Source: Candidatus Omnitrophota bacterium
GTDB taxonomy: Bacteria > Omnitrophota > Gorgyraeia > Pluralincolimonadales > Pluralincolimonadaceae
Direction of reading: 5' to 3'
Assembly (NCBI GenBank): GCA_041651455.1
Contig: JBAZJG010000010.1
Coordinates: 1-61,494 of the forward strand
Length of the DNA: 61,494 nucleotides
Position numbers and translations under genes: made by a program. Below the pieces are notes generated by a model. That model was given only the letters and a program-made list of their open reading frames with translations, ran no database searches and was not told where the DNA came from. Of the stretch, positions 12,067 through 34,655 are shown one piece after another. Numbering within the stretch: position 1 is the first letter of the stretch; every line of letters begins with the position of its first letter.

Positions 12067-12097
12067 GACAAGTGCCGGGATCGATTTAACGGGTGTT

Positions 12098-13470: not shown

Positions 13471-13474
13471 GCTC

Positions 13475-15277: not shown

Positions 15278-15287
15278 AAGTTTCTCT

Positions 15288-16598
15288 TTAGAACATCACT
15301 TTGCGCGCGCGATTTATCCCTATGGCGAGTTTCAGCAGGTTCACGCTCTTCAGGCCTTTCTTTATAACGGCCATCCTCGACTTGCCTTTAGGCGTCTCGG
15401 ATACGGTGAAGAACTCCTCCGCCAGCTCAACCAGTAATTCCGGATATTCCTTGAAAAATTCGGGATGCTTCAGCGCGAAATTCGATATGCCTTTATATCT
15501 CTTGAGGTCCATCAACACGAATGAGCCCTCGAGCCTCTTACGGTACCCGGCGAGGCCTTTCTCCGAGAAATCGTTGTTCTTCTTCGCTTCTATTATCGTT
15601 TCGGCCGCGGCAAGCCCGGACGCCATCGCGAGGTTCGAGCCCTCGTGGTAGAGCGGGTTCATGTTCACGAAACCTGCGGCATCGCCCGCGATAATGAGCC
15701 CGTCCATCGTGAGCTTCGGCAGGTGGTCGTAACCGAACTCCGGGATCATGTGCGCGGAATATTCGAGCAGTTTCCCGCCTTTAATGTAATGCTTTATCGA
15801 CGGGTGTTCTTTGAAATTTTCTATCAGGTCGTTCGGGGTCAGCTTGTTGTTCTTCAGGTCGTTCGTCGAAACGCCGATACCGAGCGATACCGACTCCTTG
15901 TTCGTGTATAAGAACGCCGAGCCGACGAGTCCCTTGACCGACCCTCCGAAATACTCGAGCGACGCGCCCTCGTCGCCCTCAATGCCGAACCTCTCCTCGA
16001 TGGCCTCTTTAGGCAGGCCTATGACCTCCTTGCAGCAGGTAACCATGTGTTCGGGCACGTGCTTTTCGCGCAGGCCCAATCCCTGCGCCAACAGCGACGT
16101 CACGCCTTCCGCAACGACGACCACGTCGGCGAACAGGTCTCCGTCCTCGAGCCGCGTCTTGACCCCGACGGCCTTCTTGCCCTCGACGATGACCTTGTCG
16201 ACCACGGCCTCGTTGAGTATCATCACGCCGGCTTCCTCGGCCTTACCCGCGTACCACGCGTCGAATTTCCCGCGCAGCACCGAGAACGTGTTGTTATACG
16301 GCGGCTTGTTGAACCTTTCGAACCTCAGACCGAGGCCAACCTCGGAATCGTCCGAAAGGACCGCGAATTTTTTCTGCACTATCCTGCGCTCGACCGGCGC
16401 CTCCGCCCAGAATTCCGGTATCAGTTTGTTCAGTATGGTCGAATAGAGTATTCCTCCCATCACGTTCTTCGAGCCGGGCTTCTCGCCGCGCTCGAGCAGG
16501 ACAACGCTGAGGCCGGCTTTCGCGAGCGCGTACGCGCACGTCGTCCCGGCGGGGCCCGCCCCCACTACTATGCAATCGAATTTCTCACCGCTTGCCAT
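15288..16598 (-). CDS. fixC: FixC-type FAD-dependent oxidoreductase (ETF-quinone oxidoreductase family)
   Basis: The N-terminus FDCIVVGAGPAGTTCAYALAKAG..LLERG..GSKNVMGG and the block VLRGKFDAWY resemble E. coli FixC, recalled from memory. No etfAB or fixX is present in the window. Confidence 0.8.
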   Translation of the reverse strand: MASGEKFDCIVVGAGPAGTTCAYALAKAGLSVVLLERGEKPGSKNVMGGILYSTILNKLIPEFWAEAPVERRIVQKKFAVLSDDSEVGLGLRFERFNKPPYNNTFSVLRGKFDAWYAGKAEEAGVMILNEAVVDKVIVEGKKAVGVKTRLEDGDLFADVVVVAEGVTSLLAQGLGLREKHVPEHMVTCCKEVIGLPKEAIEERFGIEGDEGASLEYFGGSVKGLVGSAFLYTNKESVSLGIGVSTNDLKNNKLTPNDLIENFKEHPSIKHYIKGGKLLEYSAHMIPEFGYDHLPKLTMDGLIIAGDAAGFVNMNPLYHEGSNLAMASGLAAAETIIEAKKNNDFSEKGLAGYRKRLEGSFVLMDLKRYKGISNFALKHPEFFKEYPELLVELAEEFFTVSETPKGKSRMAVIKKGLKSVNLLKLAIGINRARKVMF

Positions 16599-16613
16599 TA
16601 TGGCTCTCCTTTA

Positions 16614-18668: not shown

Positions 18669-18675
18669 CAACTGT

Positions 18676-18704
18676 ATTATATAGGCTATAAAACAAAATG
18701 GCAA
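18676..18704 (-). promoter_or_regulatory. Sigma70-like promoter abutting the patatin-gene ATG (would give a leaderless mRNA)
   Basis: The minus strand reads TTGCCA (18704..18699), a 17-nt spacer, TATAAT (18681..18676), then 7 nt to ATG 18668. No Shine-Dalgarno sequence precedes this ATG. Confidence 0.35.
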
Positions 18705-21187: not shown

Positions 21188-21958
21188 ATGAGCGTAAAAT
21201 CCCTGAATAAGCTTGTTAAGATAATGGCCCGTTTGCGGGCGAAGGACGGCTGCCCGTGGGACAGGGCGCAGACGCACGCCTCCCTGAAGAAACACATAAT
21301 CGAGGAAGCGTATGAGCTCTGTGACGCGATAGATTCCAAAGATCCCGAGAAGCTCAAGGACGAACTCGGTGATTTCCTCTTCCAGGTGATATTCCAGGCG
21401 CAGATAGCTAAGGAACGCGGAGAATTTGATATGGGTGACGTGCTTCGCACGTCTACCCTAAAGATGCTTCACCGCCATCCGCATGTCTTCGGCAAGCACA
21501 AGGCCAAGGATCCTGATGATGCTTACAGGCACTGGCAGGCGCGCAAAGAAACGGAAAAGAATTACAAAGACCGCAAGAGCATACTCGACGGCGTCCCGAA
21601 GACCCTGCCCGCGCTGATAAAAGCCCAGAAGATCTCAAGGCGCGCGGCGACTCAGGGATTCGATTGGCCGGACGTGAAATTCGTCGTGGACAAGGTGCAT
21701 GAGGAGCTTGAAGAGGTTAAAGCAGAATTGAAGATCGGCAACAAGCGCCGGCTTGCCGAGGAGATCGGCGACTTGCTGTTCGCGGTAGTGATACTCTCCC
21801 GCTTCGGCGGCATCGACGCCGAGGAATCCCTCCATAACGCGACGAAAAAATTCGCGAAACGCTTCGGCAATATCGAACGTGCCGTAAAAAAGCGCGGAAG
21901 AAAGATAAACGAGTGCGGGTTCGAGGAATTATACCGCCTATGGCGCCGCCTAAGGTGA
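21188..21958 (+). CDS. mazG: Nucleoside triphosphate pyrophosphohydrolase MazG
   Basis: Motifs RLRAKDGCPWDRAQTHASL..EEAYE, ELGDFLF and, in the second domain, EEIGDLLFAVV. Confidence 0.9.
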   Translation: MSVKSLNKLVKIMARLRAKDGCPWDRAQTHASLKKHIIEEAYELCDAIDSKDPEKLKDELGDFLFQVIFQAQIAKERGEFDMGDVLRTSTLKMLHRHPHVFGKHKAKDPDDAYRHWQARKETEKNYKDRKSILDGVPKTLPALIKAQKISRRAATQGFDWPDVKFVVDKVHEELEEVKAELKIGNKRRLAEEIGDLLFAVVILSRFGGIDAEESLHNATKKFAKRFGNIERAVKKRGRKINECGFEELYRLWRRLR

Positions 21959-24900
21959 CCGGTGTTTCCCCGCAGCGGCCATCTTTCCGTGCAGCCTCTT
22001 GCTCTGGAGGCAAAAGGCCTCAATCTTAGCCTCTATCAACGGCGGGAACGGCGTGCCGTCTATCTCTATCGACAGGAACGGGAACTCTTCCACCCCCTTA
22101 AGGCCGGGATAATCCCTTCCGAACAGTTTCTTCTTAGCGCTTAGGTTCATGTTCCCGTTCAGTATCGACTCGATTATCCTTGTGGGCAGGCACGCGAAGG
22201 GCCCCACGTTGATTATCCCGGAGACGTGTTCTGCCACCTCGTTCATTGCGGAACCGACCACGACTATCGACTCCCCGGTAAGCTGTTCGTCGAAAAACTT
22301 TTTGCCGGTGTCCATAATTCTCTTGATGTTTATTTCTTCGCCGTCATAAAGCCCGGAGCGGGCCAGTATCTTCTTTATCTTCCTCTCGTAGCTGCTCTGA
22401 AGGAAGGTCTTTATGAAGAACTCGACCCTTCCGGACACGCCGAGGTCCGCCCCGACAAGCTTGTTCTTAACGAGATGGTCGACATAATAGAACCATTCGA
22501 GCATCGGCGCCGTCTTGGCGACGATCTCTTTCTGCGCGAGCCTGTCGATAAGCGGACTGCAACAGTAATCGTCGCGCCTGACGTATATCTCGCCCATTAT
22601 CGCCACCTTGTTCGCTTCCCTAAACGGGCGTTTCAGCGGTATCCTGCTTAACACGCCCATCGAATCTCCCAATACGTCATAAAGGCCGTGTCCGCCTTCC
22701 TCTATGCAAGAGAGGACTTTCTGCCACTGCCCCTCGAATATCCTCATCGCCTCATGGCGGTCCCTGGCCAGGGCTTTTAGAGCGTTCTTTATATCATACA
22801 TCGCGTCGTATATCAGCGCGGTCTTCAGGACCAGGATATTGAACCTGTTCCCCATTCCGAGATAGCTGTTCTGGGTATCCATCGAATAGACCGCGAGGTT
22901 CCTTATCTTCTTCTTCCTGATAAGCCCGTTGAAGAAGGTATTATACTGCCCGAACCTGCAATTACCCCCCGTTGAGGGCATGAAGAATACCAGCACGTCT
23001 CCGTCTTTCCTCTGCTCGAGGTATTTCATGAGGCTTCCGGCGCTGAGTATGAGCGGAAGGCACTCTTTGCATGTGGTATTCGACCTGCCGTGTTTCAACG
23101 ATATCCCGTCGGAAGGCTCCAGCGGTATGGCGTTTATCCCGGCGGTCCTGAAGACGGCCGCGAGCGCTTCCGGCCCCATCTTACCCATCGGAGGTATAAG
23201 CAGTTTTACCTTCTTATCGTTTATCTTCAGCCTCTCCCTGTCCGACGACACTATCCACAACCTCTTCCTTCGGCTTATGCAGCGGGCCGGGATGAACGGG
23301 TCGACGGCCTTCTGCGGATGCTGTTCCGTCCTCCTTGACCTCTCTACTATATCCAGGAACGCTTCTATCCTCGTGTTTATCCCGGCATCCGCGGTATGGC
23401 TGTCTATCTCGAGGGTCAACATCGGCTTATTGTCCATTATCTCCCTGACGTGCCCGACGATGAACGAATCCGGGCCGCAGCTGAAATTGGTGACGAATAC
23501 GGCATAAAGCTGGGGATGCTTCCTGATGAACCGCGCGGCCTTCAGTATCATCTGCCCGCTTGCCCAATACATATTCCTGTCGTCAGATTCGCTTTCGTAA
23601 GGCAGGCTATCGAACGGTATTATAGTCACTCCGCGCGAGGAGAATTTATCCGGTATCGCCATATTGGCTTCGGCCGCAAAACTGTTATACGGCCTGCCGA
23701 GCAGTACTACGGCTATCCTTTCCGGGTCTTTTTTTAGGTCTTCAAGGCACTTTTTCCCGCGCTGCTTCATCTTATACGTGAAATCTTCCTGCCTGGCACA
23801 CGCTTCGGCATAAGCCCTCACCGCATCCCGCCGTTTGAAGCCCATGTCAGCGGCCATATCGACGAATGTCCCCTGCGCGCCCTTCAATCCTTTCGAGAAA
23901 TCTATTATCGGGATAAGGAGCTTGCCTGTTCCGGATCTCTTGAAAGTGTCGCGCAGGTAATACGGTTCGCTCTGAAGGATGACGCAGGTCGATTGCTGCT
24001 CCTTGCGCGAGCGGAGCGCCTTCTTGGAGCTGATCTCAAGGACCTGCGGCAGGAATATATAGTCCGTTCCCTTCTCAATCAGGTTATGGAACATGCCGTG
24101 GGCTATTTCGGCGGGATAGCAGAAGGCGGCTCTCTTGCTCTGGACCCCGTTATCCGATATAGCATCCGATACCGCGACCTTCATGCCCAAAGCGGAAAAG
24201 AAACCGTTATACAGCGGGAAGAACGTATGGGTAAGGAATGATTTACTGATACCGACTTTTTTTACGCCCGGCCGGTGGGCCGGGACGGCACCCGTGCCGA
24301 AAAGCTCCTCCTGGCGCACCTTGACCAGGTTTAGCGGTCCGTCATCGACAACGACCGAATGGTTAAGGTTATAATACCTGTTGCACGAACCGCCGAAGAG
24401 GTAGGTCTTCCCTTCTATCTCTATGCGCAGGATGCTGCAGCCTCGGTCGCATTTTTCCGCGCCTCCCTTGCACCTGAACGAGTCCCGGTACCTGACTTCC
24501 CTCCCTATCAGGCCGGAGAGCCTGAACTCTTTCTTACTGAGCAGGCCGTGTTTGAGCTTGTCCTTTACCTCCAGCGCGACTCCGAAAGCCCCCATTAGGC
24601 CCGGTTCCGGGGGGACGATGATCTTCTTGCCCAAAAGCGAAGCCATCGCGACCGGGACCGCCTTGTTGTAACATACGCCGCCCTGCATCAGGACCTTATC
24701 GCCCACTATCCTGTTGCCCTTGACCCTGTTTATGTAATTCATGCATATGGAATAAACGAGGCCTGCGACGATGTCTTCCTTCTTGAGCCCTTCGTAAGAA
24801 GCGGTCTTTATGTCGCTGCTGATGAAGGCCGCGCACTGGTCGTTGAAATTGGGCGGGTTCTCCCCTTTCATCGCCTGCGGCTCTATCCCGGCCAGTTCGA

Positions 24901-26236
24901 CGCCGAGTGTCTCCTTGCAAGACTCTTCCAGGAAAGAACCCGTGCCTGCGGAACATGCCTCGTTCATCGCGTAATCACAGGCTACCATATTCTCTATATG
25001 CGTGTATTTCGCGTCCTGCCCGCCTATCTCGAATATAGTATCGACTTCCGCGTCAAAATATGCCGCTGCCCGGGCATGGGCTATTATCTCATTTATGACG
25101 CCGTCGGTCATCGCGTGCAGGGCCGCTATCTGCCTGCCCGAGCCCGTCACCCCGATACCGGTTATCACGATATCCTTCTTGAGGTTCTTCTCGAGGGCCT
25201 TGTAACAATTGCGGGACGCTTCGACCGGGTTGCCGTTCGTCCTGAGATATACAGAATCCAGGATCGCGTTATCGCGCTCCCTCATTACAACGGCTTTGGT
25301 CGTCGTCGAGCCGACATCGAGGCCTATGATGCAGGCATCCCCGTCGGAATATTCCTTCTTCTCCCACGCGCCTTTGAACTCCACGAACGGCAGCGCGGAC
25401 TTCAACGGCGGCAGGCCCGTATACCTGGATGAATGGCGCTTATCGCTGAGAAGTTTGGTGTTCGCGGTATCCGTATTATGCTCCATCGTCCAGAGGGCCG
25501 CGCCGAGAGCCTCAAAATACGCGGCTTCTTTCGGGACATGGACAGAGCGTATGTCTTTCTTCAGGAAGTTAACGACGCGCGGGTTCAGCGCGACGCCGCC
25601 GATGAGCATTACATTCTCCCTCGGCAGGTTGACCAGGAGTTCCATGACTTTCCTCGACATCATTTCACAGAGGCCCGCAAGTATCTCGCTTATATCCTGG
25701 CCTTTATTGAGGGCGTGGGTGCAGTCGCTCTTGCAGAATACCGAACATCTGCTTGAAAGCCTGTAGGTCTTGTCCGATGACGCGAGTTTCATCGCTTCAT
25801 CGAGGGAGATATTCATCCTCCTGAGCTGCTGCATAAAGAACTCGCCGGTTCCCGACGCGCATTTATTCAGCGTCCTTATGCCGGAGATGTTGCCTTCCCC
25901 GTCGAGGACATAAGCGACGAAGAGTTCCGCGCCGACGCTGACGACGGCGTCATACTTCTTCCTGCCCGTGTTCAGGAACTTCAGCGCTTCCTCGACCGCC
26001 TCGGGCTCGGAGATCCTCGGCAGCGAGACCGACGGACCGACCTTTCTGCCGGTCACCGCGATGTTGCGGTATCCGTCATCCTGCAGCCTGCGCATCGCCT
26101 GCTCCAGCGAACCGAATATGTTGCCCTCATGCGGCATGCTGATGACCCTGCCGACATGGAGGCCGTCCTTGTCCTTATATATCTCTACCGACGTCAGGTT
26201 AGACGCCCCGACGCATATTCCGCAGGTCTTTACCAT
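21950..26236 (-). CDS. Giant BCR/HAD-family protein: two BcrAD/BadFG (HgdC-like) activase ATPase domains fused to DUF2229/dehydratase-like C-terminal domains
   Basis: 1428 aa. Two actin-fold ATPase units are visible (CGICVGASN..LNKCASGTGEFF..SSRCSVFCKSD and IIGLDVGSTTTK..MNEACSAGTGSFLE..NDQCAAFISSD). A long Cys-containing C-terminal half follows. Confidence 0.75.
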   Translation of the reverse strand: MVKTCGICVGASNLTSVEIYKDKDGLHVGRVISMPHEGNIFGSLEQAMRRLQDDGYRNIAVTGRKVGPSVSLPRISEPEAVEEALKFLNTGRKKYDAVVSVGAELFVAYVLDGEGNISGIRTLNKCASGTGEFFMQQLRRMNISLDEAMKLASSDKTYRLSSRCSVFCKSDCTHALNKGQDISEILAGLCEMMSRKVMELLVNLPRENVMLIGGVALNPRVVNFLKKDIRSVHVPKEAAYFEALGAALWTMEHNTDTANTKLLSDKRHSSRYTGLPPLKSALPFVEFKGAWEKKEYSDGDACIIGLDVGSTTTKAVVMRERDNAILDSVYLRTNGNPVEASRNCYKALEKNLKKDIVITGIGVTGSGRQIAALHAMTDGVINEIIAHARAAAYFDAEVDTIFEIGGQDAKYTHIENMVACDYAMNEACSAGTGSFLEESCKETLGVELAGIEPQAMKGENPPNFNDQCAAFISSDIKTASYEGLKKEDIVAGLVYSICMNYINRVKGNRIVGDKVLMQGGVCYNKAVPVAMASLLGKKIIVPPEPGLMGAFGVALEVKDKLKHGLLSKKEFRLSGLIGREVRYRDSFRCKGGAEKCDRGCSILRIEIEGKTYLFGGSCNRYYNLNHSVVVDDGPLNLVKVRQEELFGTGAVPAHRPGVKKVGISKSFLTHTFFPLYNGFFSALGMKVAVSDAISDNGVQSKRAAFCYPAEIAHGMFHNLIEKGTDYIFLPQVLEISSKKALRSRKEQQSTCVILQSEPYYLRDTFKRSGTGKLLIPIIDFSKGLKGAQGTFVDMAADMGFKRRDAVRAYAEACARQEDFTYKMKQRGKKCLEDLKKDPERIAVVLLGRPYNSFAAEANMAIPDKFSSRGVTIIPFDSLPYESESDDRNMYWASGQMILKAARFIRKHPQLYAVFVTNFSCGPDSFIVGHVREIMDNKPMLTLEIDSHTADAGINTRIEAFLDIVERSRRTEQHPQKAVDPFIPARCISRRKRLWIVSSDRERLKINDKKVKLLIPPMGKMGPEALAAVFRTAGINAIPLEPSDGISLKHGRSNTTCKECLPLILSAGSLMKYLEQRKDGDVLVFFMPSTGGNCRFGQYNTFFNGLIRKKKIRNLAVYSMDTQNSYLGMGNRFNILVLKTALIYDAMYDIKNALKALARDRHEAMRIFEGQWQKVLSCIEEGGHGLYDVLGDSMGVLSRIPLKRPFREANKVAIMGEIYVRRDDYCCSPLIDRLAQKEIVAKTAPMLEWFYYVDHLVKNKLVGADLGVSGRVEFFIKTFLQSSYERKIKKILARSGLYDGEEINIKRIMDTGKKFFDEQLTGESIVVVGSAMNEVAEHVSGIINVGPFACLPTRIIESILNGNMNLSAKKKLFGRDYPGLKGVEEFPFLSIEIDGTPFPPLIEAKIEAFCLQSKRLHGKMAAAGKHRSP

Positions 26237-26252
26237 GAACTAGCTCTTCCCT

Positions 26253-27296
26253 TCATATATATATCCAGTTTATCAGGTGGAATGTCACCGGGATCGTAAA
26301 TACCAGGCTGTTTACCCTGTCAATGACGCCCCCATGGCCCGGCAGGACGTTGCCGCTGTCCTTTACGCCGATGTCCCTTTTGACCATGGAAAACACGAGA
26401 TCGCCCATAAGCCCGAGGACGCCTATCAAAAATCCGAGGGCAAACATAAAGAGAGGGCTCATCCTGCCTTTGGGCATTTCCGGCATAAGCGGCAAGAATG
26501 CCATCGAAGAAAAAGCAACTATTATTGCCGTGACTATGCCCGCTCCCCACGTCTTCCTTGGATTTATGGAAGGCGCTATCTTTGCATCAAACACACGGGC
26601 TAACGGGCTCGACGGGGAGATGCTGCACAGGATATTCATAGCCTTGCCCACCCAGAATGCGATCAGGTCCCTCGCCTCCGTGAACGTAAAACAGTAAAGC
26701 AATATCATCGGGCCGAGGTTTATCATGAAAAGGCCGTGTCCGAGATTGAATACGAAGAACATAATACCGAGGGATACGGCCCCGAGGGCTTTTATCGCTC
26801 CGTCGGTCCTGTCCTGTATCACAAAAAGCAACGGTATGAGCAGGAACAGGTATACGGGGACGAGGATTATGTACAGGCCGTACCAGTTGATATAGGCAAG
26901 ATATGCATTCAGCGGGATCGCCGCATAACATACTAACATCGTTGCCCTGTTCCGGCCCATCTCTTCCCTTCCTTCCGTAACATGGGCAAAGAGATGGAAA
27001 TATTCACGCAGCGCAAAAAAACACATTAGTGACAAAAAACAGAATGATGCGATGCGGGCCGTAGCTAATGCCAGCAGGAATATCGCGGCCATCCACCACC
27101 AGGCTACGGTCCTGTCGGCGATCTCTTTTGCCGATTTCAGTTTCCTGGACAGCATTATACCAGATATTATAGTGAAGAATACGAGTAATCCGATAATAGA
27201 GGCCATGGTCATAGACATCGGGCGTTCCTGCTTTCCCGTCGACATCAGGAAAGACAGTACCGCTATGCTGAAAGGTATCAGGCATCTCCTTAACAT
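26253..27296 (-). CDS. cdsA: Phosphatidate cytidylyltransferase-family (CdsA-like) membrane protein
   Basis: The C-terminal signature is KRDIGVKDSGNVLPGHGGVIDRVNS. The protein is polytopic and hydrophobic. GGGAG lies upstream of the ATG. Confidence 0.8.
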   Translation of the reverse strand: MLRRCLIPFSIAVLSFLMSTGKQERPMSMTMASIIGLLVFFTIISGIMLSRKLKSAKEIADRTVAWWWMAAIFLLALATARIASFCFLSLMCFFALREYFHLFAHVTEGREEMGRNRATMLVCYAAIPLNAYLAYINWYGLYIILVPVYLFLLIPLLFVIQDRTDGAIKALGAVSLGIMFFVFNLGHGLFMINLGPMILLYCFTFTEARDLIAFWVGKAMNILCSISPSSPLARVFDAKIAPSINPRKTWGAGIVTAIIVAFSSMAFLPLMPEMPKGRMSPLFMFALGFLIGVLGLMGDLVFSMVKRDIGVKDSGNVLPGHGGVIDRVNSLVFTIPVTFHLINWIYI

Positions 27297-27300
27297 GATC

Positions 27301-27939
27301 TTATCTCCCTATCCAGGTGTACGACTTGTATTCCGCTCCCTTTGCGGACTCAATGGTCTTCTTGACCCTTAATATACAGGTCAGAAGGACTAACGATGAT
27401 ACCCATATAAGGTAATAATCGACATAGCCGAAGAATGGCGGATAAAAGAACACTATCACCGCGAACACCGCCATCCATACCGCCCTGTCCGGCTTGCCGC
27501 CTCCTATGGTCTCGTGCCGCCTGATCCCGTTCGGCATGCCTTTACCGAGGACCCCGTAAAATTCTGCGGCCCATGTCAATATAAGGAACACGAAAAGCGA
27601 AATGGTCGGGCCTCCCGGTACAAAAAACAGCGAACCGTAACAAATCGTATCTCCTACTATGTCGAGGGTTTCGTTCCATATCTCTCCGGCTACCGTGGCA
27701 TTGCCGCGCTCTCTCGAAAGCATGCCGTCCAGAGTATTCATTACCATCCTTAACAACAGGAACAACGGCACGAGAAGCAGCAGCCAATGAAGCCTGCGGC
27801 ATGTCAGCCCAAGATAGAAGCCCGCTGCCGTCAGGATTATGAATACGCATCCGGCTACCGTTGCCTGGTTTGCGGTCATCCACTTACCTCCCACCCATCT
27901 CACTACTTTCTGGAAATTGCCTTTCTGCAAATATAACAT
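27301..27939 (-). CDS. CDP-alcohol phosphatidyltransferase-family protein
   Basis: The D(x)2DG(x)2AR...G(x)3D(x)3D-type motif is seen as NTLDGMLSRERG..AGEIWNETLDIVGD. AAGGAG is the RBS. Confidence 0.8.
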   Translation of the reverse strand: MLYLQKGNFQKVVRWVGGKWMTANQATVAGCVFIILTAAGFYLGLTCRRLHWLLLLVPLFLLLRMVMNTLDGMLSRERGNATVAGEIWNETLDIVGDTICYGSLFFVPGGPTISLFVFLILTWAAEFYGVLGKGMPNGIRRHETIGGGKPDRAVWMAVFAVIVFFYPPFFGYVDYYLIWVSSLVLLTCILRVKKTIESAKGAEYKSYTWIGR

Positions 27940-27954
27940 CTCTGTCTTTCTCCT

Positions 27955-30627
27955 TTAATATAAGCTGATCTTTTCTATTTCTTTTTTGGCAAGCATCGCC
28001 AGGGCCTTGTATCCATCATAACTGCGTTCCGCGCCCTTTGGGTCTATCGGTTCCCCGATAATAAGTTCGATCTTTCTGGGCCTGATAAAATAGCTGCCCT
28101 TCCCGAGCGCATCCTGCGCTCCTTTGATATATACCGGGACTATCGGGATGCCCAATTCGATCGATAGCATGCCGATGCCCGGCTTGAATTCCCCGATATT
28201 CTTCTGTATTGAACGTGTCCCTTCGGGAAATAGTATTATCGATTTCCCCTGTCTCATTAATTCCTCGCAGACTTTCAATCCTTTGAGAAAATTACCCGAT
28301 CTCTCAAAGGGAAAGATGTTCAAGAATGATTCCGCGGCAATGCGCCGCGGCCTGTTCTTATAGAAGTAATCCGAAGCTGCCGGGGCAAAGACGTCCCTTG
28401 CCATCATGACGGGGAATATGCTGTATAATAACGGGTAATCGAGGTGGCTCGAATGGTTTGCTGCCAGTATAAAAGAGCTTTTTCCCGGAAGATTGCCTTT
28501 CCCCTTCACCGATAGCCTTACATAAACTCTGAAGAATACCTTAAGGGCCGCGGCAGCCATAAGGTGGCAAACGAACATAACCCTGGACCTGGCTATAATG
28601 GCACGCGCTTCGGTGCGCGGGTCAAATTGTTCCTTCTTTTCCGCGCGCCCCTTGTCGTTAATTAGCAGTGCGAGGTCTTTCAGCGTTGCGGCCTTTTGCC
28701 ATTCCTCTTCGGACAGGGATATGCCGAGTTCCTGCTCTATATCGCAGATCAGTTCCACCTTTTGGAGGGAATCTATCCCGAGGTCCGCATATAAGTCGGA
28801 ATCGGCCGATATCTTTTTCGGGTCCATCCCCGCCTTTTTTGCGGTAATGGGCGCTATCTTTTGCAGGGCATCATTAAATATAAGCGAGTCCCCCTCGTTA
28901 CTCCCCGCGGGCTTATCTTGCGGACGGTACGTTTCGGCGATCTTTTGTACTTCTTTCCTCTTTATCTTCCTCGTCGAAGTCTTCGGCAGCTCGTCGAAAT
29001 AGAGCATGAAATCCGGTATCTTCTTATATTCCGCGAGGTTATTGCTCAGGCGGCTTACCTCGGACCCCACTTTCTTCCTGATAAGCTCCTTATCCTTTTT
29101 ATCGGCGCCCTCAAAACGTTCGAGGTTAGGCGCGATCACCGCAAATACTTCCTCCGTGCCTGCCTTGAGCCCTTCGGCCGCCTTCTTGCCGAGGACGCAG
29201 ATCTCCTTTATGTACGGGCTCGCGGACATGACCTCCTCTATCTCTTCCGGAAAGACCTTCTTGCCGCCGCCGAGGACTATAAGGTTCCTTATGCGGCCGG
29301 TAATATACAGGAACCCGTCCCTGTCGAACCTGCCGATGTCGCCTGTATGGAGCCAGCCGTCTTTTATCATCTCGGCGGTCTTTTCGGGGTTCTTGTAATA
29401 TCCTTTCATGACATGGTCACCGCGCGTGACTATCTCGCCCTCTTCGCCGAACGTGCCGTCCGGCTTCATCAGCTTCACTTCGACTCCCGGTATCGGCTTG
29501 CCGACGGAGCCGTATTTCAGTTCCCTGAAGGTGTTGACCGCGATAACCGGCGATGTTTCGGTCAGCCCGTAGCCCTGCAGGATAGTGAACCCCATCGCGT
29601 TAAAATCCATCTCGACCGTCAGGTCGAGCGGCGCACCGCCCGAGACGAAACATCTTAGGTTCCTGCCGAACTGGCTGTGTATCTTTTTGAAAATGTATTT
29701 CCCGGGCTTCATGTTAAGCTTCAGCATGAACCTGCACAGGTGCAGGCACATGAAGAAGAACCGCCTTTGGACGAACGGCAGCGATTGCGCCTTCTTTATT
29801 ATGCCGTCGTGGAACATCTTCAGCACGAGCGGCACCGTTATCATCACTGAAGTGCGGGTCTCGTTCATCAGCGCGATGATGTTCGCCGGCTTCAGGCTGT
29901 CGCAATAGGTTATCGTCGCCCCGACATAGAGAGGCGACAGGAACCCGCCCGTCATCTCGAGCATGTGGTTGAGCGGCAGCATCGAAAGGAAGTTGTCCGC
30001 CTCTGTGTAGTGGACGAGCCTGTTGAGCTCCTTCGCCTGGAACATCAGGTTCCTGTAGGTCAGCTCGACGCCTTTCGCGACGCCCGTCGTGCCGGACGTG
30101 TAGACTATGACCGCGGTATCCTCGACGGCAAGCGGCAGGTACTTCCTGTCGCCGGCCTTCATCTTGAGGTCCTTTATCTTTATCAGGTCGGTACGGGCCG
30201 AATCGTCGAGGAGTAACACCTGCTTCAGTGCCGTGAGCTTAGGCTTGATATTGTCTATCTCCGGAAGGTATTTCTCCGAGACGAACACGAACTTCGTGCC
30301 GCTGTCATTCAGGATGAACTCTATCTCTTTTTCGCTGAGCTTCACGTCGATCGGGACGACTATTCCGCCGCACGAGATGATGCCGAAGAGGGCGATGCCC
30401 CACTCCGGACGCGATTCGGAAAGTATCGCGGCGCGGTCGCCTTTTTCCATCCCCAGCTTAAGCAGCGTTGAAGATACATCGACCGCCCGCTCGCCGAGCG
30501 GGACATATGAGAGCGCGTTCCATCCGTCCTTCGTCTTTATCTGCAGGGCGGTCTTCGAGAACCAGCGCTTGTTTATCGATTCCATTATCTCGTGGATGGA
30601 AAGGTTGTCGAAATCAGGCCTGGGCAT
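27955..30627 (-). CDS. Tri-domain enzyme: acyl-AMP ligase (adenylation) + acyl-carrier (phosphopantetheine) domain + PlsC-type lysophospholipid acyltransferase
   Basis: The adenylation domain carries YTSGTTGVAKGV, GYGLTETS and TGDIG. The carrier motif is DLGIDSLQKVEL. The acyltransferase carries HX4D (ANHSSHLD) and FPEGTRS. Confidence 0.85.
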   Translation of the reverse strand: MPRPDFDNLSIHEIMESINKRWFSKTALQIKTKDGWNALSYVPLGERAVDVSSTLLKLGMEKGDRAAILSESRPEWGIALFGIISCGGIVVPIDVKLSEKEIEFILNDSGTKFVFVSEKYLPEIDNIKPKLTALKQVLLLDDSARTDLIKIKDLKMKAGDRKYLPLAVEDTAVIVYTSGTTGVAKGVELTYRNLMFQAKELNRLVHYTEADNFLSMLPLNHMLEMTGGFLSPLYVGATITYCDSLKPANIIALMNETRTSVMITVPLVLKMFHDGIIKKAQSLPFVQRRFFFMCLHLCRFMLKLNMKPGKYIFKKIHSQFGRNLRCFVSGGAPLDLTVEMDFNAMGFTILQGYGLTETSPVIAVNTFRELKYGSVGKPIPGVEVKLMKPDGTFGEEGEIVTRGDHVMKGYYKNPEKTAEMIKDGWLHTGDIGRFDRDGFLYITGRIRNLIVLGGGKKVFPEEIEEVMSASPYIKEICVLGKKAAEGLKAGTEEVFAVIAPNLERFEGADKKDKELIRKKVGSEVSRLSNNLAEYKKIPDFMLYFDELPKTSTRKIKRKEVQKIAETYRPQDKPAGSNEGDSLIFNDALQKIAPITAKKAGMDPKKISADSDLYADLGIDSLQKVELICDIEQELGISLSEEEWQKAATLKDLALLINDKGRAEKKEQFDPRTEARAIIARSRVMFVCHLMAAAALKVFFRVYVRLSVKGKGNLPGKSSFILAANHSSHLDYPLLYSIFPVMMARDVFAPAASDYFYKNRPRRIAAESFLNIFPFERSGNFLKGLKVCEELMRQGKSIILFPEGTRSIQKNIGEFKPGIGMLSIELGIPIVPVYIKGAQDALGKGSYFIRPRKIELIIGEPIDPKGAERSYDGYKALAMLAKKEIEKISLY

Positions 30628-31354
30628 CTTCTTTTACCTCTTTATGCCTGTTCCTTATCGATTCGGCCGGTATGCCGTAATATATGTCCCGGGGTTCGAC
30701 CTTCGTGCCTTTTCGCAGTACGGCGCTCGCCCCTATTATCGCGTTGTCCCCTATCTCACAACCGGGCATTATCGTCGAATGTGACCCTATCGTGACGTTC
30801 TTGCCTATCTTGACCTTCCTCAGCTTCAGCGTTCCGCGCTCCACGATATGCCCGATGATGATAGCTCCCCCGCCGACGACCGTATTGTCGCCTATCTCAA
30901 GAAGGGTCGCGTCAAAGATATATTTGGAGTTTATCTGCACGTTCTTTCCGAGCTTTACTCCCAATAAGCGCAGGAAGATATTCGCGAACGGCGTGAGCAG
31001 GATGAAATCTATGAACGTGAAATTGACCAGCAGGTACAACGCGCTTATAAAAGCCCACTTGAAGGTCTCGGCCGAGAATATCGGATGGTTGCCCTCTTTG
31101 AGCCGTATGCGCAACACGGTGCGGACGAGCCCGACGAGCAGGATAAGCGTAAGGCCGAAAAGGAAATAACCTCCGGCGATGGAGACCCCGAGAAGGAAGT
31201 ACTTTGCGACCGCCGGCATATCCTGCGAATATCCGAGCGCGCCGAAGAACACCGCTATGCCGGGGATAAGCGCTATACCGAAGAATAGCGTGCCGATAAG
31301 GTACATCGATATCGCAGCAAGCATTTGTGTCGCAGAAACGAGTAGCCACTTCAT
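30614..31354 (-). CDS. Membrane-anchored hexapeptide-repeat (left-handed beta-helix) acyl/acetyltransferase
   Basis: About four N-terminal TM helices are followed by LbH repeats (IGDNTVVGGGAIIIGH..IGKNVTIGSHSTIMPGCEIGDNAIIGASAVL). AAGGAGG is the RBS. The gene overlaps the downstream gene by 14 nt. Confidence 0.8.
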   Translation of the reverse strand: MKWLLVSATQMLAAISMYLIGTLFFGIALIPGIAVFFGALGYSQDMPAVAKYFLLGVSIAGGYFLFGLTLILLVGLVRTVLRIRLKEGNHPIFSAETFKWAFISALYLLVNFTFIDFILLTPFANIFLRLLGVKLGKNVQINSKYIFDATLLEIGDNTVVGGGAIIIGHIVERGTLKLRKVKIGKNVTIGSHSTIMPGCEIGDNAIIGASAVLRKGTKVEPRDIYYGIPAESIRNRHKEVKEDAQA

Positions 31355-31367
31355 TTTCGGCCTCCTT

Positions 31368-32105
31368 TTACAGGGTCTGCCTGAACCATTCCGATATAAG
31401 ATCTTTCATTCTGCCGGGGTATTGTTCTATAAGGCGTTCCGCGTGCAGCCCGTCGCTGAATATCTCCAGCTTCTTCTCGTATACGGTCGCAGAATTAAAG
31501 AGCTTCTTAGAGTGATAATCTTTTATGACCCAGTCCTTCGCGCCGTGTATGAAGAGTATCGCGCTGTCCTTTACTGCCGCTATCATGTCTATCGGCCTCT
31601 CCTTATCCATAAAGATATGGTCGATCTTGACGCCTTTGCCCTCGAACCTGCAATCTATCATCGCCTTGAGGTCCGAGAACATCTCGGGTTCCCAGAAATG
31701 GTAGTTGATATCCCAAAAGCTGTAAGGGGCGCTTACAAGGGCCATGCTCTTTATCTCCGTCCTCCTTGCAGCCACGATTATCGCTATTGCCGCGCCGAGC
31801 GAGAACCCGATAACGCCTATCCTCTTATATCCGCTCTTGACGGCATAACCTATGACCGCATCGAGATCCGACGGTTCCTTGGCCGTCCACGTGAATTTAC
31901 CTCCGCTCTTGCCGTGCCCGCGGAAATCGAATATTATCACGTCGTGCTCTCCGGAGACGAGGTCGATAGCCTTCCTTATTGCGCCGTTTGCCTTGCTGTT
32001 GAAGAAGCCGGGGCAAACTATAATGACTGAATCGAAGCCGTTCCTGAAATGCTCGAAGGCGATCTCTACGCCGTCTTCCGTAACGAGGGTTTCGTTAGAG
32101 CTCAT
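31368..32105 (-). CDS. Alpha/beta hydrolase
   Basis: Motifs FDFRGHGKSGG, GFSLGA (nucleophile elbow), IHGAKD and GLHAE. The start ATG 32105 (MSSNETL) overlaps the marR end by 11 nt. Confidence 0.75.
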   Translation of the reverse strand: MSSNETLVTEDGVEIAFEHFRNGFDSVIIVCPGFFNSKANGAIRKAIDLVSGEHDVIIFDFRGHGKSGGKFTWTAKEPSDLDAVIGYAVKSGYKRIGVIGFSLGAAIAIIVAARRTEIKSMALVSAPYSFWDINYHFWEPEMFSDLKAMIDCRFEGKGVKIDHIFMDKERPIDMIAAVKDSAILFIHGAKDWVIKDYHSKKLFNSATVYEKKLEIFSDGLHAERLIEQYPGRMKDLISEWFRQTL

Positions 32106-32550
32106 CTTCGGCCCTCTTGAGGCCCCTATCGAGCCTGTCAAGTATCTCCGCCAGCCCCTTCTTGTCCTTCTCGTCGAGGAACCAGACAAGTTTCTTTACG
32201 TTTTCGAAATACTTGTCCTCGACTTTGTTTATGAGGTCTATGCCCTTCTTCGTTACGGTTATATGGTTTACGCGGCGGTCGTCTGCGCTCCCTTCCCGTT
32301 TTACAAGGCCTGTTTTTTCGAGCCTGTCGATTATTCCCGTGATATTCGACCTTGAGACGACCCTGTTTATTCCCAGGTCGCTCTGGGTAAGCCTGTTCTT
32401 GGAGTATTTCAATATTACGAGCACGTCGTATTGGGCCGTCGTTACGCCGAACCCGGCGAAAAACCTGTCCGCGGCTTTAATTATGGCTTCCGAAACGTGC
32501 ACAAGCTTGCGAATGCTGTTGTTATTCAACTGGTCTGTATCTGTAGGCAT
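32095..32550 (-). CDS. MarR-family transcriptional regulator
   Basis: 151 aa. A winged-HTH block is present (LTQSDLGINRVVSRSNITGIIDRLEKTGLVKREGSADDRR). Confidence 0.85.
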   Translation of the reverse strand: MPTDTDQLNNNSIRKLVHVSEAIIKAADRFFAGFGVTTAQYDVLVILKYSKNRLTQSDLGINRVVSRSNITGIIDRLEKTGLVKREGSADDRRVNHITVTKKGIDLINKVEDKYFENVKKLVWFLDEKDKKGLAEILDRLDRGLKRAEDEL

Positions 32551-32580
32551 GGCGGACCTTTCTTTTGTTATCTTATTAAT

Positions 32581-32609
32581 AGTTTATATCATAATTGTTA
32601 TGTTGTCAA
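32581..32609 (-). promoter_or_regulatory. Sigma70-like promoter of the marR-lipid operon
   Basis: The minus strand reads TTGACA (32609..32604), a 17-nt spacer, then TAAACT (32586..32581). The spacer contains the AT-rich pseudo-palindrome ATAACAATTAT, a possible MarR operator. Confidence 0.45.
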
Positions 32610-32627
32610 GTAATATTTTAAAAAAAT

Positions 32628-34181
32628 TTATCGGCGCTTCTTTCTTGCCATAAATATGCCGGAAAGCCCCGAAAGCATCAGCAGGATGGTCGACGGCTCG
32701 GGTACGACGAATATCGACGCGTCATCCACGTATATCGCGGAACTCCAGTACCTGCCGGCCGCAATGTCCGCATCCGAAATGTTACAGGAGAGGTTCCTGC
32801 GGATAAAGAACGTCATCGGCGTCCCGTTGGACTGCGCGGTCACCATTATCTGCTGCCAGGCGGCGGTGAACTGCTCCGGCGTCATCGTTACCATATTCCA
32901 TATTATATTCGGGGAATTCGGGTCTGCCCCGCCCGTTGGGTCGATTCCGGCAGCCACCATCACTTCGGCATCCGATGCAAGCATATCCGCCGGTATATCG
33001 TTTATGCTCTGGAACCAGAACGAGAACCCGTAGGTCGTGCCTGCGGTCGAACCGGCTAATGTCTGCCTAAAAGAGTTGTCGTGCTCGAACGAGCCGGCAT
33101 CTTCTATCTGTTCGCCCATACCGACAGAATACGATCCGGACCTTTTGTGCGCGTTGGTGGAGTAAGATGCGTCGAAGAAGAATCCGCCGCTCGAGCTGTC
33201 CTGGTAGCTCCACTCTGTGGGCTGACAGGTATCGAAACTCATGGTCTCGAAACCGGCATTCTTTACCTTGTCGGGGAAGACGTCTATCTTTATCCTGTTA
33301 AGGGAATATCCTGCGGAGCCCATAGCGGAGTCGATATCGTCTGCATAATACGGCACGAACGAGTCGTAGGTGTTCCAGGCCTCGGTCCCGGTCGACACGG
33401 CGAAATGCGTCCCTGCGATGGTAAGCTGGCCGTTCCAGACCAGGAAGCTCGGGCTGCCGGAATCGCCGCCCTGACATCCTGCCTGGCCCTGCGGATCGTT
33501 GTTGCTGTCGTAGCTGTACACCGCGGTAGTGGTACCATTGGTAGGGTTGGAGAAACCTGTAGTAGCAACGTTCTGGAAATTATCTATGGTATTGTTTCCC
33601 GCCTTCGCCGTCCAGCCGTAGGTCAGCAGGTCCTTGCCGTTATACCATCCGGTATCGAACCACGATGTGGAATAATCGTCGGCGTCGAGCACCGAATAGC
33701 TCGCGATGCCGTCAGAAACGGGGATCGCCTCGGTAAGCCAGCCAAGCGCGAGGTCGGGGATGCACATATACGGGTTGCCGCTGTTATCGTAGAGAGGCTT
33801 GCCGTTCTGTGTCAGCTGATAATCGAACGTCGAATATCCCTGAACGGTATAGGTCTTGAGCTGGCCGAGAGAGTTAACGAATGATACCGTGCTTCCTACC
33901 GGCACCCTATAGTGGTTCGCGCATACGAAGTTCTGCGCGGAGACCATCGCCACGCTGCGGCCCGCGTAATCGGTCTGCCAGCCGACGCCGGACCAGTCGT
34001 ACGCGGCGCCGATAAAATCGGGGTTCGCGACAGGGTTAGCGGTACCGTAAGTGCCGGCTACGAAGCGGTCGTAGAGGTTCGAGTCATAGCCGCTTATTTC
34101 GAGCGCCGACGCCTGCGGAATACGGCATAAGCCGAAAAGTGCGGATAAAAAAATGACCCGAAGAATGAGTTTTTTCGTCAA
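32628..34181 (-). CDS. Secreted trypsin-like serine-protease-domain protein with a C-terminal PEP-CTERM sorting signal
   Basis: TTG start. The signal peptide is KKLILRVIFLSALFGLCRIPQASA. Candidate triad residues are CANH, PDLALGWL and CQGGDSGSP. The C-terminus is VPEPSTILLMLSGLSGIFMARKKRR, i.e. PEP + TM + basic tail. Confidence 0.8.
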   Translation of the reverse strand: MTKKLILRVIFLSALFGLCRIPQASALEISGYDSNLYDRFVAGTYGTANPVANPDFIGAAYDWSGVGWQTDYAGRSVAMVSAQNFVCANHYRVPVGSTVSFVNSLGQLKTYTVQGYSTFDYQLTQNGKPLYDNSGNPYMCIPDLALGWLTEAIPVSDGIASYSVLDADDYSTSWFDTGWYNGKDLLTYGWTAKAGNNTIDNFQNVATTGFSNPTNGTTTAVYSYDSNNDPQGQAGCQGGDSGSPSFLVWNGQLTIAGTHFAVSTGTEAWNTYDSFVPYYADDIDSAMGSAGYSLNRIKIDVFPDKVKNAGFETMSFDTCQPTEWSYQDSSSGGFFFDASYSTNAHKRSGSYSVGMGEQIEDAGSFEHDNSFRQTLAGSTAGTTYGFSFWFQSINDIPADMLASDAEVMVAAGIDPTGGADPNSPNIIWNMVTMTPEQFTAAWQQIMVTAQSNGTPMTFFIRRNLSCNISDADIAAGRYWSSAIYVDDASIFVVPEPSTILLMLSGLSGIFMARKKRR

Positions 34182-34262: not shown

Positions 34263-34280
34263 ACGAAATTAATTGCTTTT

Positions 34281-34655
34281 TTATAGGACGTATTTGACGG
34301 TGTTGTCGAGGGCCTTCTTGAACTCGAAGACATCCCTGAAGTCCTCGATGGAGTCTTCTTCTGTCTTGGAGAGCAGTCTGGCTTTTATGAGGTTAAATAC
34401 GATGTTCCCGAAATCTTCGGTCTTCGTGACCCCCCAGCTCTCGAGCACCGTACGGGCGAGCGGGCCGAACTGGTCTATCGCGTATTCGCGGAGCCCTTCG
34501 GAGAGTTCCCTGCCGTTGACATGGCGCGGCTTCTCGAACCTCGATACCGTGTGGGTGAGGCCGTTGAGCACAAAGAGGTAAGCGTCGATCTTATATCTCG
34601 GGTCCTTCTCCGCGACCTTTTCGAGTATCCCCGTTATATCCAGGCGTTCCTTCAT
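34281..34655 (-). CDS. Minf_1886-family (Verrucomicrobia/Planctomycetes-type) small conserved protein
   Basis: 124 aa. The blocks HVNGRELSEGLREYAIDQFGPLARTVLESWGV..EDFGNIVFNLI..LLSKTEEDS match my recollection of TIGR04138. Confidence 0.5.
   Translation of the reverse strand: MKERLDITGILEKVAEKDPRYKIDAYLFVLNGLTHTVSRFEKPRHVNGRELSEGLREYAIDQFGPLARTVLESWGVTKTEDFGNIVFNLIKARLLSKTEEDSIEDFRDVFEFKKALDNTVKYVL

Follow-up and report, generated by a model that had tools for sequence, protein, structure and literature searches.

The PlsA/Ger reductases, described in 2021-2022 and surveyed across phyla, turn the sn-1 ester of a phospholipid into an alk(en)yl ether, and comprise PlsA/PlsR of Clostridium perfringens, the single-gene PlsA of Enterococcus, Lactococcus and Bifidobacterium, and Ger of Thermotoga maritima and Desulfatibacillum alkenivorans. 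The single-gene PlsA is laid out as Act1-Act2-Red1-Red2, and plsA genes are 4248-4920 bp long. A core of two PF01869 domains plus PF09989 (the BBD core) is conserved in all alkyl-ether producers (PMC13159169), an architecture that Sahonero-Canavesi et al. ascribed to Ger. An alkyl (Ger) and an alkenyl (PlsA) product are not separable by sequence, and both PlsA and Ger are active as single genes in E. coli. In the literature accounts consulted these reductases are encoded by a stand-alone gene or a two-gene operon, with the lipid-gene neighbourhood unmentioned, whereas in the stretch of DNA analysed here (the window, 61,494 nucleotides of contig JBAZJG010000010.1, assembly GCA_041651455.1, from Candidatus Omnitrophota bacterium) a protein most likely of this kind (g7) closes a lipid operon of seven genes (g1 to g7, Table 1). 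This operon is a mosaic of modules that also occur apart, and it is read here as an accessory lipid salvage and remodelling system that probably ends in an ether-linked phospholipid.

ElbD, from the elbB-elbE ether-lipid cluster of Myxococcus xanthus, carries its adenylation and carrier domains first and a PlsC-type acyltransferase last, with a reductase domain between carrier and acyltransferase. The fourth protein of the operon (g4) is a fusion of a ligase, a carrier and a PlsC domain and has the same start (adenylation, carrier) and the same end (PlsC). It was rejected as an ElbD, since it has neither an NAD-binding/reductase domain nor room for one (the carrier ends at residue 654 and PlsC starts at residue 705). 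Without a reductase, g4 would provide no fatty aldehyde or alcohol for the elb route, and ether formation would fall to Ger; no homologues of elbB or elbE were seen. The elb-like clusters of sponge symbionts adjoin genes for glycerol-3-phosphate acyltransferases, diacylglycerol (DAG) kinases and CDP-alcohol phosphatidyltransferases, and clusters of this type are the nearest described analogue of the whole operon. ElbD homologues have been counted in 93 of 267 Black Sea Omnitrophota metagenome-assembled genomes (MAGs), and g4-type proteins may account for many of these counts. Aas of E. coli, which with LplT forms a lysophospholipid repair system, and AasC of Chlamydia trachomatis carry out an ATP-dependent activation of fatty acids onto a carrier thiol. 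Aas and g4 have in common this activation and a PlsC-family transfer to lysophospholipid in one polypeptide, although the order is reversed (PlsC then ligase in Aas) and the carrier is built into g4, in place of a soluble acyl carrier protein (ACP). The Aas models of NCBIfam give g4 177-220 bits against cut-offs of 1221-1349 (PRK08633, 219.5 against 1221), so that g4 is not an Aas by these models. A likeness to LplT is found in genes for MFS:PlsC fusions, which stand in the same cluster in five related loci (L014, L015, L041, L044 and L046; comparison loci are given by their numbers in the genome collection).

The seven open reading frames (ORFs) run in the same direction on the minus strand, spanning 21950-32550 in the ORF list of the window, and their junctions, from g1 to g7, measure -11, +13, -14, +15, +4 and +16 nt, in agreement with the dense packing (gaps of -14 to +16 nt) reported in a preliminary description of this DNA. 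Gaps of at most 16 nt leave no room for an intergenic terminator, and the 3' end of g7 overlaps a convergent MazG gene by 9 nt, which places the end of the operon there. Pfam and NCBIfam agree with all seven domain calls of that description, the call for g5 being at threshold and then backed by AlphaFold and Foldseek. The promoter that it had read (TTGACA-17-TAAACT) is present at 32609-32581, in a 77-nt intergenic gap, with the -35 element at 32609-32604, the -10 element at 32586-32581 and a spacer of 17 nt on the minus strand. The bare consensus is unexceptional (15 promoter-like sites in the region against 11.4 +/- 3.0 in shuffles); an alignment of the DNA upstream of MarR shows a block of about 48 nt around the promoter (consensus TACTTGACAACATAACAGTTATnATATAAACTGTTA) that is nearly invariant in seven genomes, whereas the flanking intergenic DNA diverges. 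The spacer contains the site ATAACAATTAT at 32601-32591, and a related site, TAAACTATTAA, lies over the -10 element at 32586-32576; in most relatives the two read TAACAGTTA and AACTGTTA, and both fit TAAC(A/T)(G/A)TTA in the alignment of the seven genomes. A pair of sites in the spacer and over the -10 element is in the usual position of a MarR operator, and this pair is probably one. An inverted-repeat finder gave no match in the promoter region, the operator sites being taken from the alignment. Terminator-like hairpins are about twofold more frequent between 21000 and 35000 than in shuffles (26 against 13.3 +/- 3.6), and all of them are within coding sequence, such as a GC-rich stem of 7-8 bp at 28332-28350, inside the PlsC part of g4.

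Table 1. Features of the lipid operon, in the order of transcription (positions in the window).
Feature	Size	Position	Strand	Basis
Promoter and probable MarR operator		32576..32612	minus	Sequence reading, scan, seven-genome alignment; MarR binding predicted
g1, MarR-family winged-helix regulator	151 aa	32095..32550	minus	Pfam PF01047, 49 bits (cut-off 24.6)
g2, alpha/beta-fold serine hydrolase	245 aa	31368..32105	minus	Pfam Hydrolase_4 and Abhydrolase_1
g3, membrane-anchored left-handed beta-helix (LbH) acyltransferase	246 aa	30614..31354	minus	Pfam Hexapep
g4, whole AMP-binding/PP-binding/PlsC fusion	890 aa	27955..30627	minus	Pfam
g4, N-terminal fatty-acid adenylating ligase domain	residues 1-557	28957..30627	minus	Pfam AMP-binding, 267 bits
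g4, C-terminal part, carrier and PlsC-type acyltransferase		27955..28956	minus	Pfam PP-binding and Acyltransferase; in frame with ligase
Recombination cassette (ACP-PlsC, g5 and g6)	2.7 kb	26240..28955	minus	blastn breakpoints, identities, GC content at third codon positions (GC3)
g5, CDP-alcohol phosphotransferase-fold membrane protein	212 aa	27301..27939	minus	Pfam, AlphaFold, Foldseek
g6, long CdsA-like CTP:phosphatidate cytidylyltransferase	347 aa	26253..27296	minus	Pfam CTP_transf_1, 130 bits
g7, fused PlsA/Ger-type ester-to-ether reductase (most likely)	1428 aa	21950..26236	minus	Pfam, NCBIfam, PDB matches, conservation

The last protein, g7, contains two BcrAD/BadFG activase domains (residues 1-260 and 303-555; PF01869 in two stretches, 207 bits), a segment with four cysteines (C589, C596, C600 and C618) between these and a DUF2229 domain (PF09989, residues 660-878, 162 bits), and a second reductase-like half of about 500 residues, the counterpart of PlsR, that runs to position 1428 and has a weak HGD-D fragment (residues 912-963, 18.8 bits). 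Residues 880-1428 align untruncated to 12 homologues, with C920, C1059, C1093 and C1349 invariant. Fifteen cysteines are invariant in 13 diverse homologues (C126, C164, C168; C428, C468; C589, C596, C600, C618; C706, C751, C920; C1059, C1093, C1349), in groups that are as expected for an activase bridging cluster and reductase clusters. Full-length homologues that are 49-52% identical over 99-100% of the length come from sources named as Chitinispirillia, Deltaproteobacteria and Woesearchaeota, and the PDB matches are HAD/BCR activators, that is, relatives of the activase domains only. Architecture, length and cysteines are shared with the PlsA and Ger proteins, and g7 most likely belongs to this kind. 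A guess of the preliminary description, that the product could be an ether or vinyl-ether lipid, fits with the two PF01869 domains, the PF09989 domain and the PlsA/Ger length of about 1430 residues. A benzoyl-CoA reductase or 2-hydroxyacyl-CoA dehydratase was rejected as an identity for g7, because the equivalog scores are far under cut-off and the fused BBD arrangement is the PlsA/Ger architecture.

The composition of the operon was compared between the window and six close loci, the six closest loci in the genome collection coming from Omnitrophota/Omnitrophica MAGs, one of them labelled Planctomycetia. The genes for MarR, the hydrolase, the LbH protein and the ligase domain are constant in all close relatives (the short contig L004 begins inside the locus). 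The blastn homology ends at 28955-28957 in every one of them, which is at about codon 558 of g4, just past the motif PKTSTRKIKR. It restarts at 26239-26248, 3-12 nt before the g7 start, in L003, L005 and L013, where Ger is present, and at 21945-21946, just past the g7 stop, in L001, L004 and L006, where Ger is absent. L001 and L004 (90% and 81% identical to the g4 ligase domain, respectively) have a stand-alone ligase of about 570 aa followed directly by MazG, with no cassette and no Ger. The nearest relative, L005 (ligase domain 89% and Ger 91% identical), has eight unrelated genes in the slot. The L006 slot (11700-18437) holds ORFs that match those of L005 in size and order and are unrelated to the cassette of the window, and no Ger, and the L002 slot (4865-13745) holds four tandem ORFs of about 445 aa (the two that were scanned are B12-binding radical SAM proteins), two proteins without a Pfam match and a GH3-family adenylating enzyme. 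L003 and L013 have the order MarR-alpha/beta hydrolase-LbH-fusion-CDP-alcohol transferase-CdsA-three genes-Ger, which is the layout of the window plus three inserted genes; the flanking genes are 80-85% identical to those of the window and the N-terminal part of g4 80%, against only 50-53% for the ACP-PlsC part, 29% for the CDP-alcohol transferase and 30% for CdsA. The g5 and g6 proteins of the window are 57% and 51% identical to those of the distant locus L015, whose Ger is only 62% identical. GC3 is 0.78 in the ligase domain, 0.59-0.63 across ACP-PlsC, g5 and g6, and 0.73 in g7.

These shared breakpoints, odd identities and the dip in GC3 identify the stretch between the ligase domain and g7 as a recombination cassette, by which the ligase ORF is lengthened in frame. 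The g7 gene forms a second unit that a locus either has in full or lacks, and the operon is a mosaic of three modules that are also found apart: a core (MarR, hydrolase, LbH and ligase), a triad (PlsC, g5 and g6) and Ger. The operon is therefore no fixed unit, in contrast to the self-contained pathway proposed in the preliminary description. The synteny of the seven genes, which had been offered there as a check, fails in the closest relatives, in which only the four core elements are constant, but the fusion, g5, g6 and Ger are kept in distant Omnitrophota. An assembly chimera is an unlikely cause of the mosaic, because the g4 ORF is continuous and has full-length homologues of about 880-900 aa, the identical arrangement is found on a second contig, and in another metagenome a g5 that is 87% identical is followed by a CdsA signature of the g6 type.

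Some of the genes found in these slots were also recorded. The L005 slot (9215-16344) encodes an Lgt-like protein, an ICMT/PEMT-like methyltransferase, a zinc-ribbon radical SAM protein, an ArsP permease, and Se/S-carrier-like, Carb_kinase-like and sulfur-transport proteins. The three genes beside the type-B CdsA/transferase cassette of L013 (7188-10594) and L003 (14188-17640) encode proteins of 493-507 aa and 198 aa without a Pfam domain and one of 437-468 aa with a precomputed CapK_C match only.

Within the cassette, the C-terminal part of g4 has a PP-binding carrier domain (residues 590-654) with the motif GIDSL, in which Ser620 is the phosphopantetheine site, a hydrophobic anchor (683-703) and a PlsC domain (705-835; Pfam Acyltransferase, 81 bits) that displays the catalytic motifs of the PlsC/LPLAT enzymes, namely HX4D (HSSHLD, 725-730) and FPEGTR (800-805). 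g5 is at the threshold of the Pfam model CDP-OH_P_transf (22.5 bits, cut-off 22). Its AlphaFold2 model (pLDDT 83, pTM 0.81) has as its top 19 Foldseek matches only CDP-alcohol phosphotransferase (CDP-AP) enzymes (probability 1.00, TM 0.58-0.67), the nearest structures being phosphatidylinositol phosphate (PIP) synthases (Mycobacterium tuberculosis PgsA1, R. salmoninarum and M. kansasii), AF2299 and DIPPS, and by this model g5 has the transmembrane six-helix CDP-AP fold. The motif of g5 reads N68-x2-D71-G-x2-S-R-x8-G85-x3-N89-x3-D93-x3-D97 and does not follow the four-Asp signature D-x2-D-G-x2-A-R-x8-G-x3-D-x3-D: alignment to the M. tuberculosis PgsA1 PIP synthase and CPT1 shows that N68 and N89 stand where the canonical motif has its first and third Asp, the other two Asp being retained as D71 and D93. 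An exhaustive search of 1.84 billion proteins gave 674 representatives of g5 relatives, and among the best 150 of them the Asn/Asn pattern, N-x2-D-G-x2-[AS]-R-x8-G-x3-N-x3-D, occurs in 111 of the 112 in which the motif could be read. By its sequence conservation, g5 belongs to a coherent Asn-variant subfamily and is not a decayed gene; a pseudo-enzyme was ruled out because the Asn/Asn pair is strongly conserved and 212-aa orthologues that are 57-87% identical align ungapped in a set of 20 sequences, in which the conserved N-terminus also backs the start chosen for the 212-aa protein. The best curated model for g5 is archaetidylinositol phosphate synthase (41 bits). PIP and archaetidylinositol-phosphate synthases share its fold, although g5 differs by the Asn/Asn pair and scores far under the equivalog cut-offs, and no inositol-phosphate synthase gene was found near the operon.

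The CdsA-like g6 retains at residues 303-329 the PROSITE signature of CdsA, S-x-[LIVMF]-K-R-x4-K-D-x-[GSA]-x2-[LIF]-[PGS]-x-H-G-G-x2-D-R, which is conserved across all g6 homologues. The same Pfam family contains CTP-dependent polyprenol kinases, an identity that was rejected for g6 on account of this signature. With CdsA of T. maritima (4q2e/4q2g) g6 shares the signature and the C-terminal catalytic region, to which it aligns in 4q2g, whereas it is about 60-80 residues longer, diverges in the N-terminal half and is paired with g5; its score against the CdsA equivalog PRK11624 is 58.8 bits (cut-off 385). g6 adjoins g5 in nearly every locus of the type found in the window (type A) that has room for it, and in most of them it is immediately downstream of g5. 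In one metagenome contig, L034 (8300-11697), PlsC and a second, divergent CdsA-like gene, 25% identical to g6, stand immediately upstream of the g5-g6 pair; the two side-by-side CdsA-like paralogues both fall short of the canonical CdsA model.

AMP-ACP-PlsC fusions of 873-907 aa and about 45-53% identity are common in Omnitrophota, and one was found in Wallbacteria. In those Omnitrophota loci that were examined, the LbH gene directly precedes the gene for the ligase or the fusion; this is not so in the Wallbacteria locus L012. Seven distant loci (L015, L041, L042, L044, L046, L049 and L056) have the order hydrolase-LbH-fusion-g5-g6-(DAG kinase)-Methyltransf_20-(one or two radical SAM genes and other genes)-Ger, L049 and L056 being short contigs that begin at the end of the fusion gene. 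The MFS:PlsC gene heads L015, L041, L042, L044 and L046, and MarR is detectable in L041, L044 and L046. In L014 the order is Ger-MarR-MFS:PlsC-LbH-fusion-...-CdsA-methyltransferase-flavodoxin-DAG kinase. Ger occurs within 10 kb in all 11 Omnitrophota-type g5-g6 loci with at least 5 kb of downstream sequence. The fact that distant Omnitrophota keep the fusion, g5, g6 and Ger together makes a functional link among the modules likely. Flavodoxin genes are present in sister loci. Radical SAM and Methyltransf_20 genes lie between CdsA and Ger in L015 (7696-9870), L049 (3048-5219) and L041 (13438-14658); the radical SAM proteins of sister loci have 425 and 275 aa, that of L041 being a 407-aa protein of the SPASM type. 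A possible kinship of any of them with the membrane-spanning lipid synthases Mss or Tes would bear on the producers of branched tetraethers.

Outside Omnitrophota the triad takes the form of a three-gene module made up of g5, a long CdsA and a stand-alone PlsC of 204-211 aa, with no Ger nearby. Orthologues of g5 with 212 aa come from sources named as Pirellulales, Thermoguttaceae (Planctomycetota), Zixibacteria, Desulfobulbus and TA06, and the contigs with the g5-g6-PlsC triad are named as Zixibacteria and Desulfobulbus or belong to one genome of 5.7 Mb and five unassigned metagenome contigs. In a distant branch (about 30% identity, metagenome contigs) a g5-like gene is accompanied by Methyltransf_20, PlsC and CdsA.

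In the core module, the MarR gene heads the locus in L001-L003, L005, L006 and L013, and a more distant MarR occurs in L014, L041, L044 and L046. g1 falls under every NCBIfam equivalog cut-off tried (MprA, HpaR, OhrR and FabT). Between the MarR and hydrolase genes L006 has a 937-aa DUF2339 membrane protein (5707-8520), and L001 a gap of similar size at the same position (about 5883-8530), a variable point inside the core. The g2 gene starts with an ATG at 32105, overlapping the MarR stop by 11 nt, and its product has a GFSLG nucleophile elbow (residues 100-104); its NCBIfam matches are weak (lactonases and lysophospholipase L2, all far under cut-off), and its lipid substrate is putative. g3 has, by hydropathy, about three hydrophobic segments in residues 10-135, followed by hexapeptide repeats (about 130-240). 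Its top NCBIfam match is TIGR02353, the C-terminal transmembrane (TM) plus LbH domain of the Pls/PosA nonribosomal peptide synthetases (NRPSs), with 99 bits (E 1.8e-28), and the second is heptaprenylglyceryl-phosphate O-acetyltransferase (64 bits). In each of the 14 relatives that were examined, the LbH gene is next to the ligase gene, either with an overlap or at a distance of up to about 40 nt. The ligase domain of g4 carries the motifs TSGTTGVAKG (177-186), GYGLTE (352-357), TGD (428-430) and PKTSTRKIKR (548-557), has FadD13 as its best PDB match, and is 80-92% identical to the stand-alone 567-573-aa ligases of the closest relatives.

Taken together, the domains, gene packing and synteny point to an accessory, MarR-controlled operon for lipid salvage and remodelling, the end product of which would most likely be an ether-linked (1-O-alkyl or 1-O-alk-1'-enyl) phospholipid, a reading to which we give a probability of roughly 0.6. 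The MarR repressor would sit on the two sites over the spacer and the -10 element and be released by a ligand of lipid type. The serine hydrolase g2 would yield free fatty acid and/or a lyso-lipid, and the g4 ligase would adenylate the fatty acid and load its own carrier domain, from which the PlsC domain would move the acyl group to lysophosphatidate or a lysophospholipid, in a chemistry like that of Aas with a built-in ACP. g3, the constant partner of the ligase, would pass the activated acyl group to another acceptor in the membrane. g6 would convert phosphatidate to CDP-diacylglycerol, and g5 would transfer the phosphatidyl group to an alcohol (its nearest structures accept inositol phosphate). 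Once the phospholipid is complete, g7, with ATP and a low-potential electron donor, would turn its sn-1 ester into an ether, a reaction demonstrated experimentally for PlsA and Ger. The operon combines the core and Ger with the triad of PlsC, g5 and g6, which is widespread in other phyla and entered by recombination where the ligase domain ends.

The interpretation of the locus as a lipid operon, already made in the preliminary description, thus holds, and an accessory role is more likely for it than a housekeeping one, since the C-terminal part of g4, g5 and g6 are missing at this locus from relatives whose ligase domains are 80-90% identical, three of which have no g7 either. That description had not recognised the gene combination as a described system. 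The key enzyme family, PlsA/Ger, is already known, but literature searches found no description of this gene cluster, nor of Ger inside such a cluster, the Asn-variant triad or cassette swapping at this locus. The LplT-like MFS:PlsC, DAG kinase and flavodoxin genes of sister loci, together with a patatin gene and a second ligase/hydrolase pair nearby in the window, suggest a scavenging flavour. Omnitrophota are reported to be ultra-small cells with host-dependent traits (PMC10066038), and a scavenging system would suit the host-dependent lifestyle proposed there.

Several points weigh against this interpretation. The membership of g7 in the PlsA/Ger kind is judged from architecture, length and family-wide conservation, and literature searches returned no experiments on these proteins or on Omnitrophota lipids. 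With Asn in place of two of the four canonical Asp residues of its metal site, g5 may have a chemistry that differs from ordinary CDP-DAG:alcohol transfer. Accessory status is judged on 61 kb, and canonical plsC, cdsA and pgsA may be absent from the rest of the genome. Each module can also be found apart from the others: L005 has Ger but no triad, other phyla have the triad but no Ger, and L001 and L004 have LbH with ligase but neither of these, so their co-location need not mean one pathway.

A wider interpretation, tentative and with less in its favour than the salvage operon, is that PlsC, the long CdsA and the Asn-variant transferase form an undescribed pathway for a non-canonical phospholipid that spans several phyla, and that in Omnitrophota it has been welded, through in-frame recombination where a fatty-acid ligase ends, onto a scavenging module and Ger, the locus being a hypervariable "lipid island". 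An unusual substrate or head group may be the reason why a dedicated acyltransferase and cytidylyltransferase are required, and the cassettes that modify head groups and tails (two CdsA/transferase types, methyltransferases, radical SAM proteins and DAG kinases) may be exchanged among close relatives by analogy with O-antigen loci, with selection by hosts, prey or phages on the membrane surface as a possible driver.

It is unlikely, but worth weighing, that the modules are merely adjacent and functionally independent, sharing a promoter at a recombination hot spot for envelope and lipid genes, with Ger acting on bulk phospholipid, the triad making its own lipid, and LbH and ligase doing something else. 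Besides the separate occurrence of Ger in L005 and of LbH and ligase in L001, L004 and L010, the triad has no Ger within 10 kb in L017, L018, L019, L025, L026, L028, L053 and L058, the slot is filled by unrelated cassettes in L002, L005 and L006, and PlsA and Ger function as single genes in E. coli. Nevertheless, the fusion, g5 and g6 are linked with Ger in at least four Omnitrophota lineages despite rearrangements (Ger at 85%, 62% and 49% identity), each module has to do with the chemistry of acyl-glycerolipids, and no gap exceeds 16 nt.

Still less probable is that the operon carries out housekeeping synthesis, providing the only PlsC, CdsA and head-group transferase of a reduced, possibly host-dependent cell that would use scavenged fatty acids to make its bulk membrane. 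The 61-kb window contains no further homologue of plsC, cdsA or CDP-alcohol transferase/pgsA, ligase-ACP-PlsC fusions are so common in Omnitrophota that they would fit a main route, and the ultra-small, host-dependent traits reported in PMC10066038 would agree with it. Yet L001 and L004 pass from the ligase directly to MazG, L002, L005 and L006 have unrelated genes in the place of the cassette, two non-orthologous types of g5 and g6 (29-30% identical) occur in one close group, which is unusual for essential genes, g6 reaches only 59 bits against the CdsA equivalog cut-off of 385, and the triad is also present in genomes of 4.5 and 5.7 Mb, which very probably have the canonical genes as well.

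There is only a slight chance that g3 and g4 are the real unit, an NRPS-like system making an N- or O-acylated membrane or small-molecule product (a lipoamino acid or acylated head group) to which the phospholipid genes are accessories, a view that is compatible with the salvage operon: the Pls/PosA C-terminal domain is the best curated match of g3 (99 bits, against at most 64 for other LbH families), as in epsilon-poly-L-lysine synthetase one TM plus hexapeptide unit is found beside an adenylation/carrier protein, and g3 has the ligase as its neighbour in all the genomes examined, most often with the stop codon of one gene overlapping the start codon of the next, but g3 is a separate 246-aa protein matching one unit of a three-unit model, far under its 423-bit cut-off, there is no amino-acid-type adenylation domain, the ligases of the closest relatives have no carrier domain, and the carrier-fused PlsC already supplies the transfer to an acceptor.

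Anoxic settings are rich in bacterial ether lipids, among them the branched tetraethers that serve as palaeoclimate proxies, but the producers and pathways of these lipids are only partly known. The locus gives Ger, which the accounts consulted handle as an isolated marker gene, a defined genetic context of fatty-acid activation, acyl transfer, CDP-activation and head-group transfer, with radical SAM proteins and methyltransferases in sister loci, and offers a concrete gene set for expression from an uncultured phylum. For phospholipid biosynthesis, a strictly conserved Asn/Asn variant of the metal site, with its own CdsA and PlsC, is found in contigs assigned to several phyla, and cassettes are swapped cleanly within an operon, one swap being that of a domain and in frame. 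Should the organism depend on a host, the operon may show how scavenged ester lipids are converted into its own membrane.

The remaining part of the window is ordinary core chromosome, with genes for complex I, ATP synthase, Era, SurE, an Omp85 protein and two tRNAs. The operon promoter is immediately preceded by a gene on the minus strand (32628-34181), which encodes a 517-aa secreted protein with a PEP-CTERM-like C-terminus (VPEPSTILLMLSGLSGIFMARKKRR) and no Pfam domain. It is an insertion/deletion polymorphism, carried only by the window and L001, whereas in L002, L003, L005, L006 and L013 the homology skips from about 34280-34312 to about 32622-32629, bypassing this gene. More genes related to lipids follow the operon at a distance of a few kb, encoding a 684-aa protein with cNMP-binding and patatin phospholipase domains (16614-18704, minus strand), a second AMP-ligase (32% identical to g4) followed by an alpha/beta hydrolase (12625-15277, minus strand), and a FixC/ETF-QO-like flavoprotein; L001 has a similar second ligase about 8 kb past its MazG gene. 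The Omp85-family outer-membrane protein (9338-11308, minus strand) has an N-terminal dienelactone-hydrolase-like domain, an unusual fusion, and between the complex I and ATP synthase genes a 381-aa protein (44922-46067, plus strand) contains a retropepsin-like aspartyl protease domain (Asp_protease_2/gag-asp_proteas).

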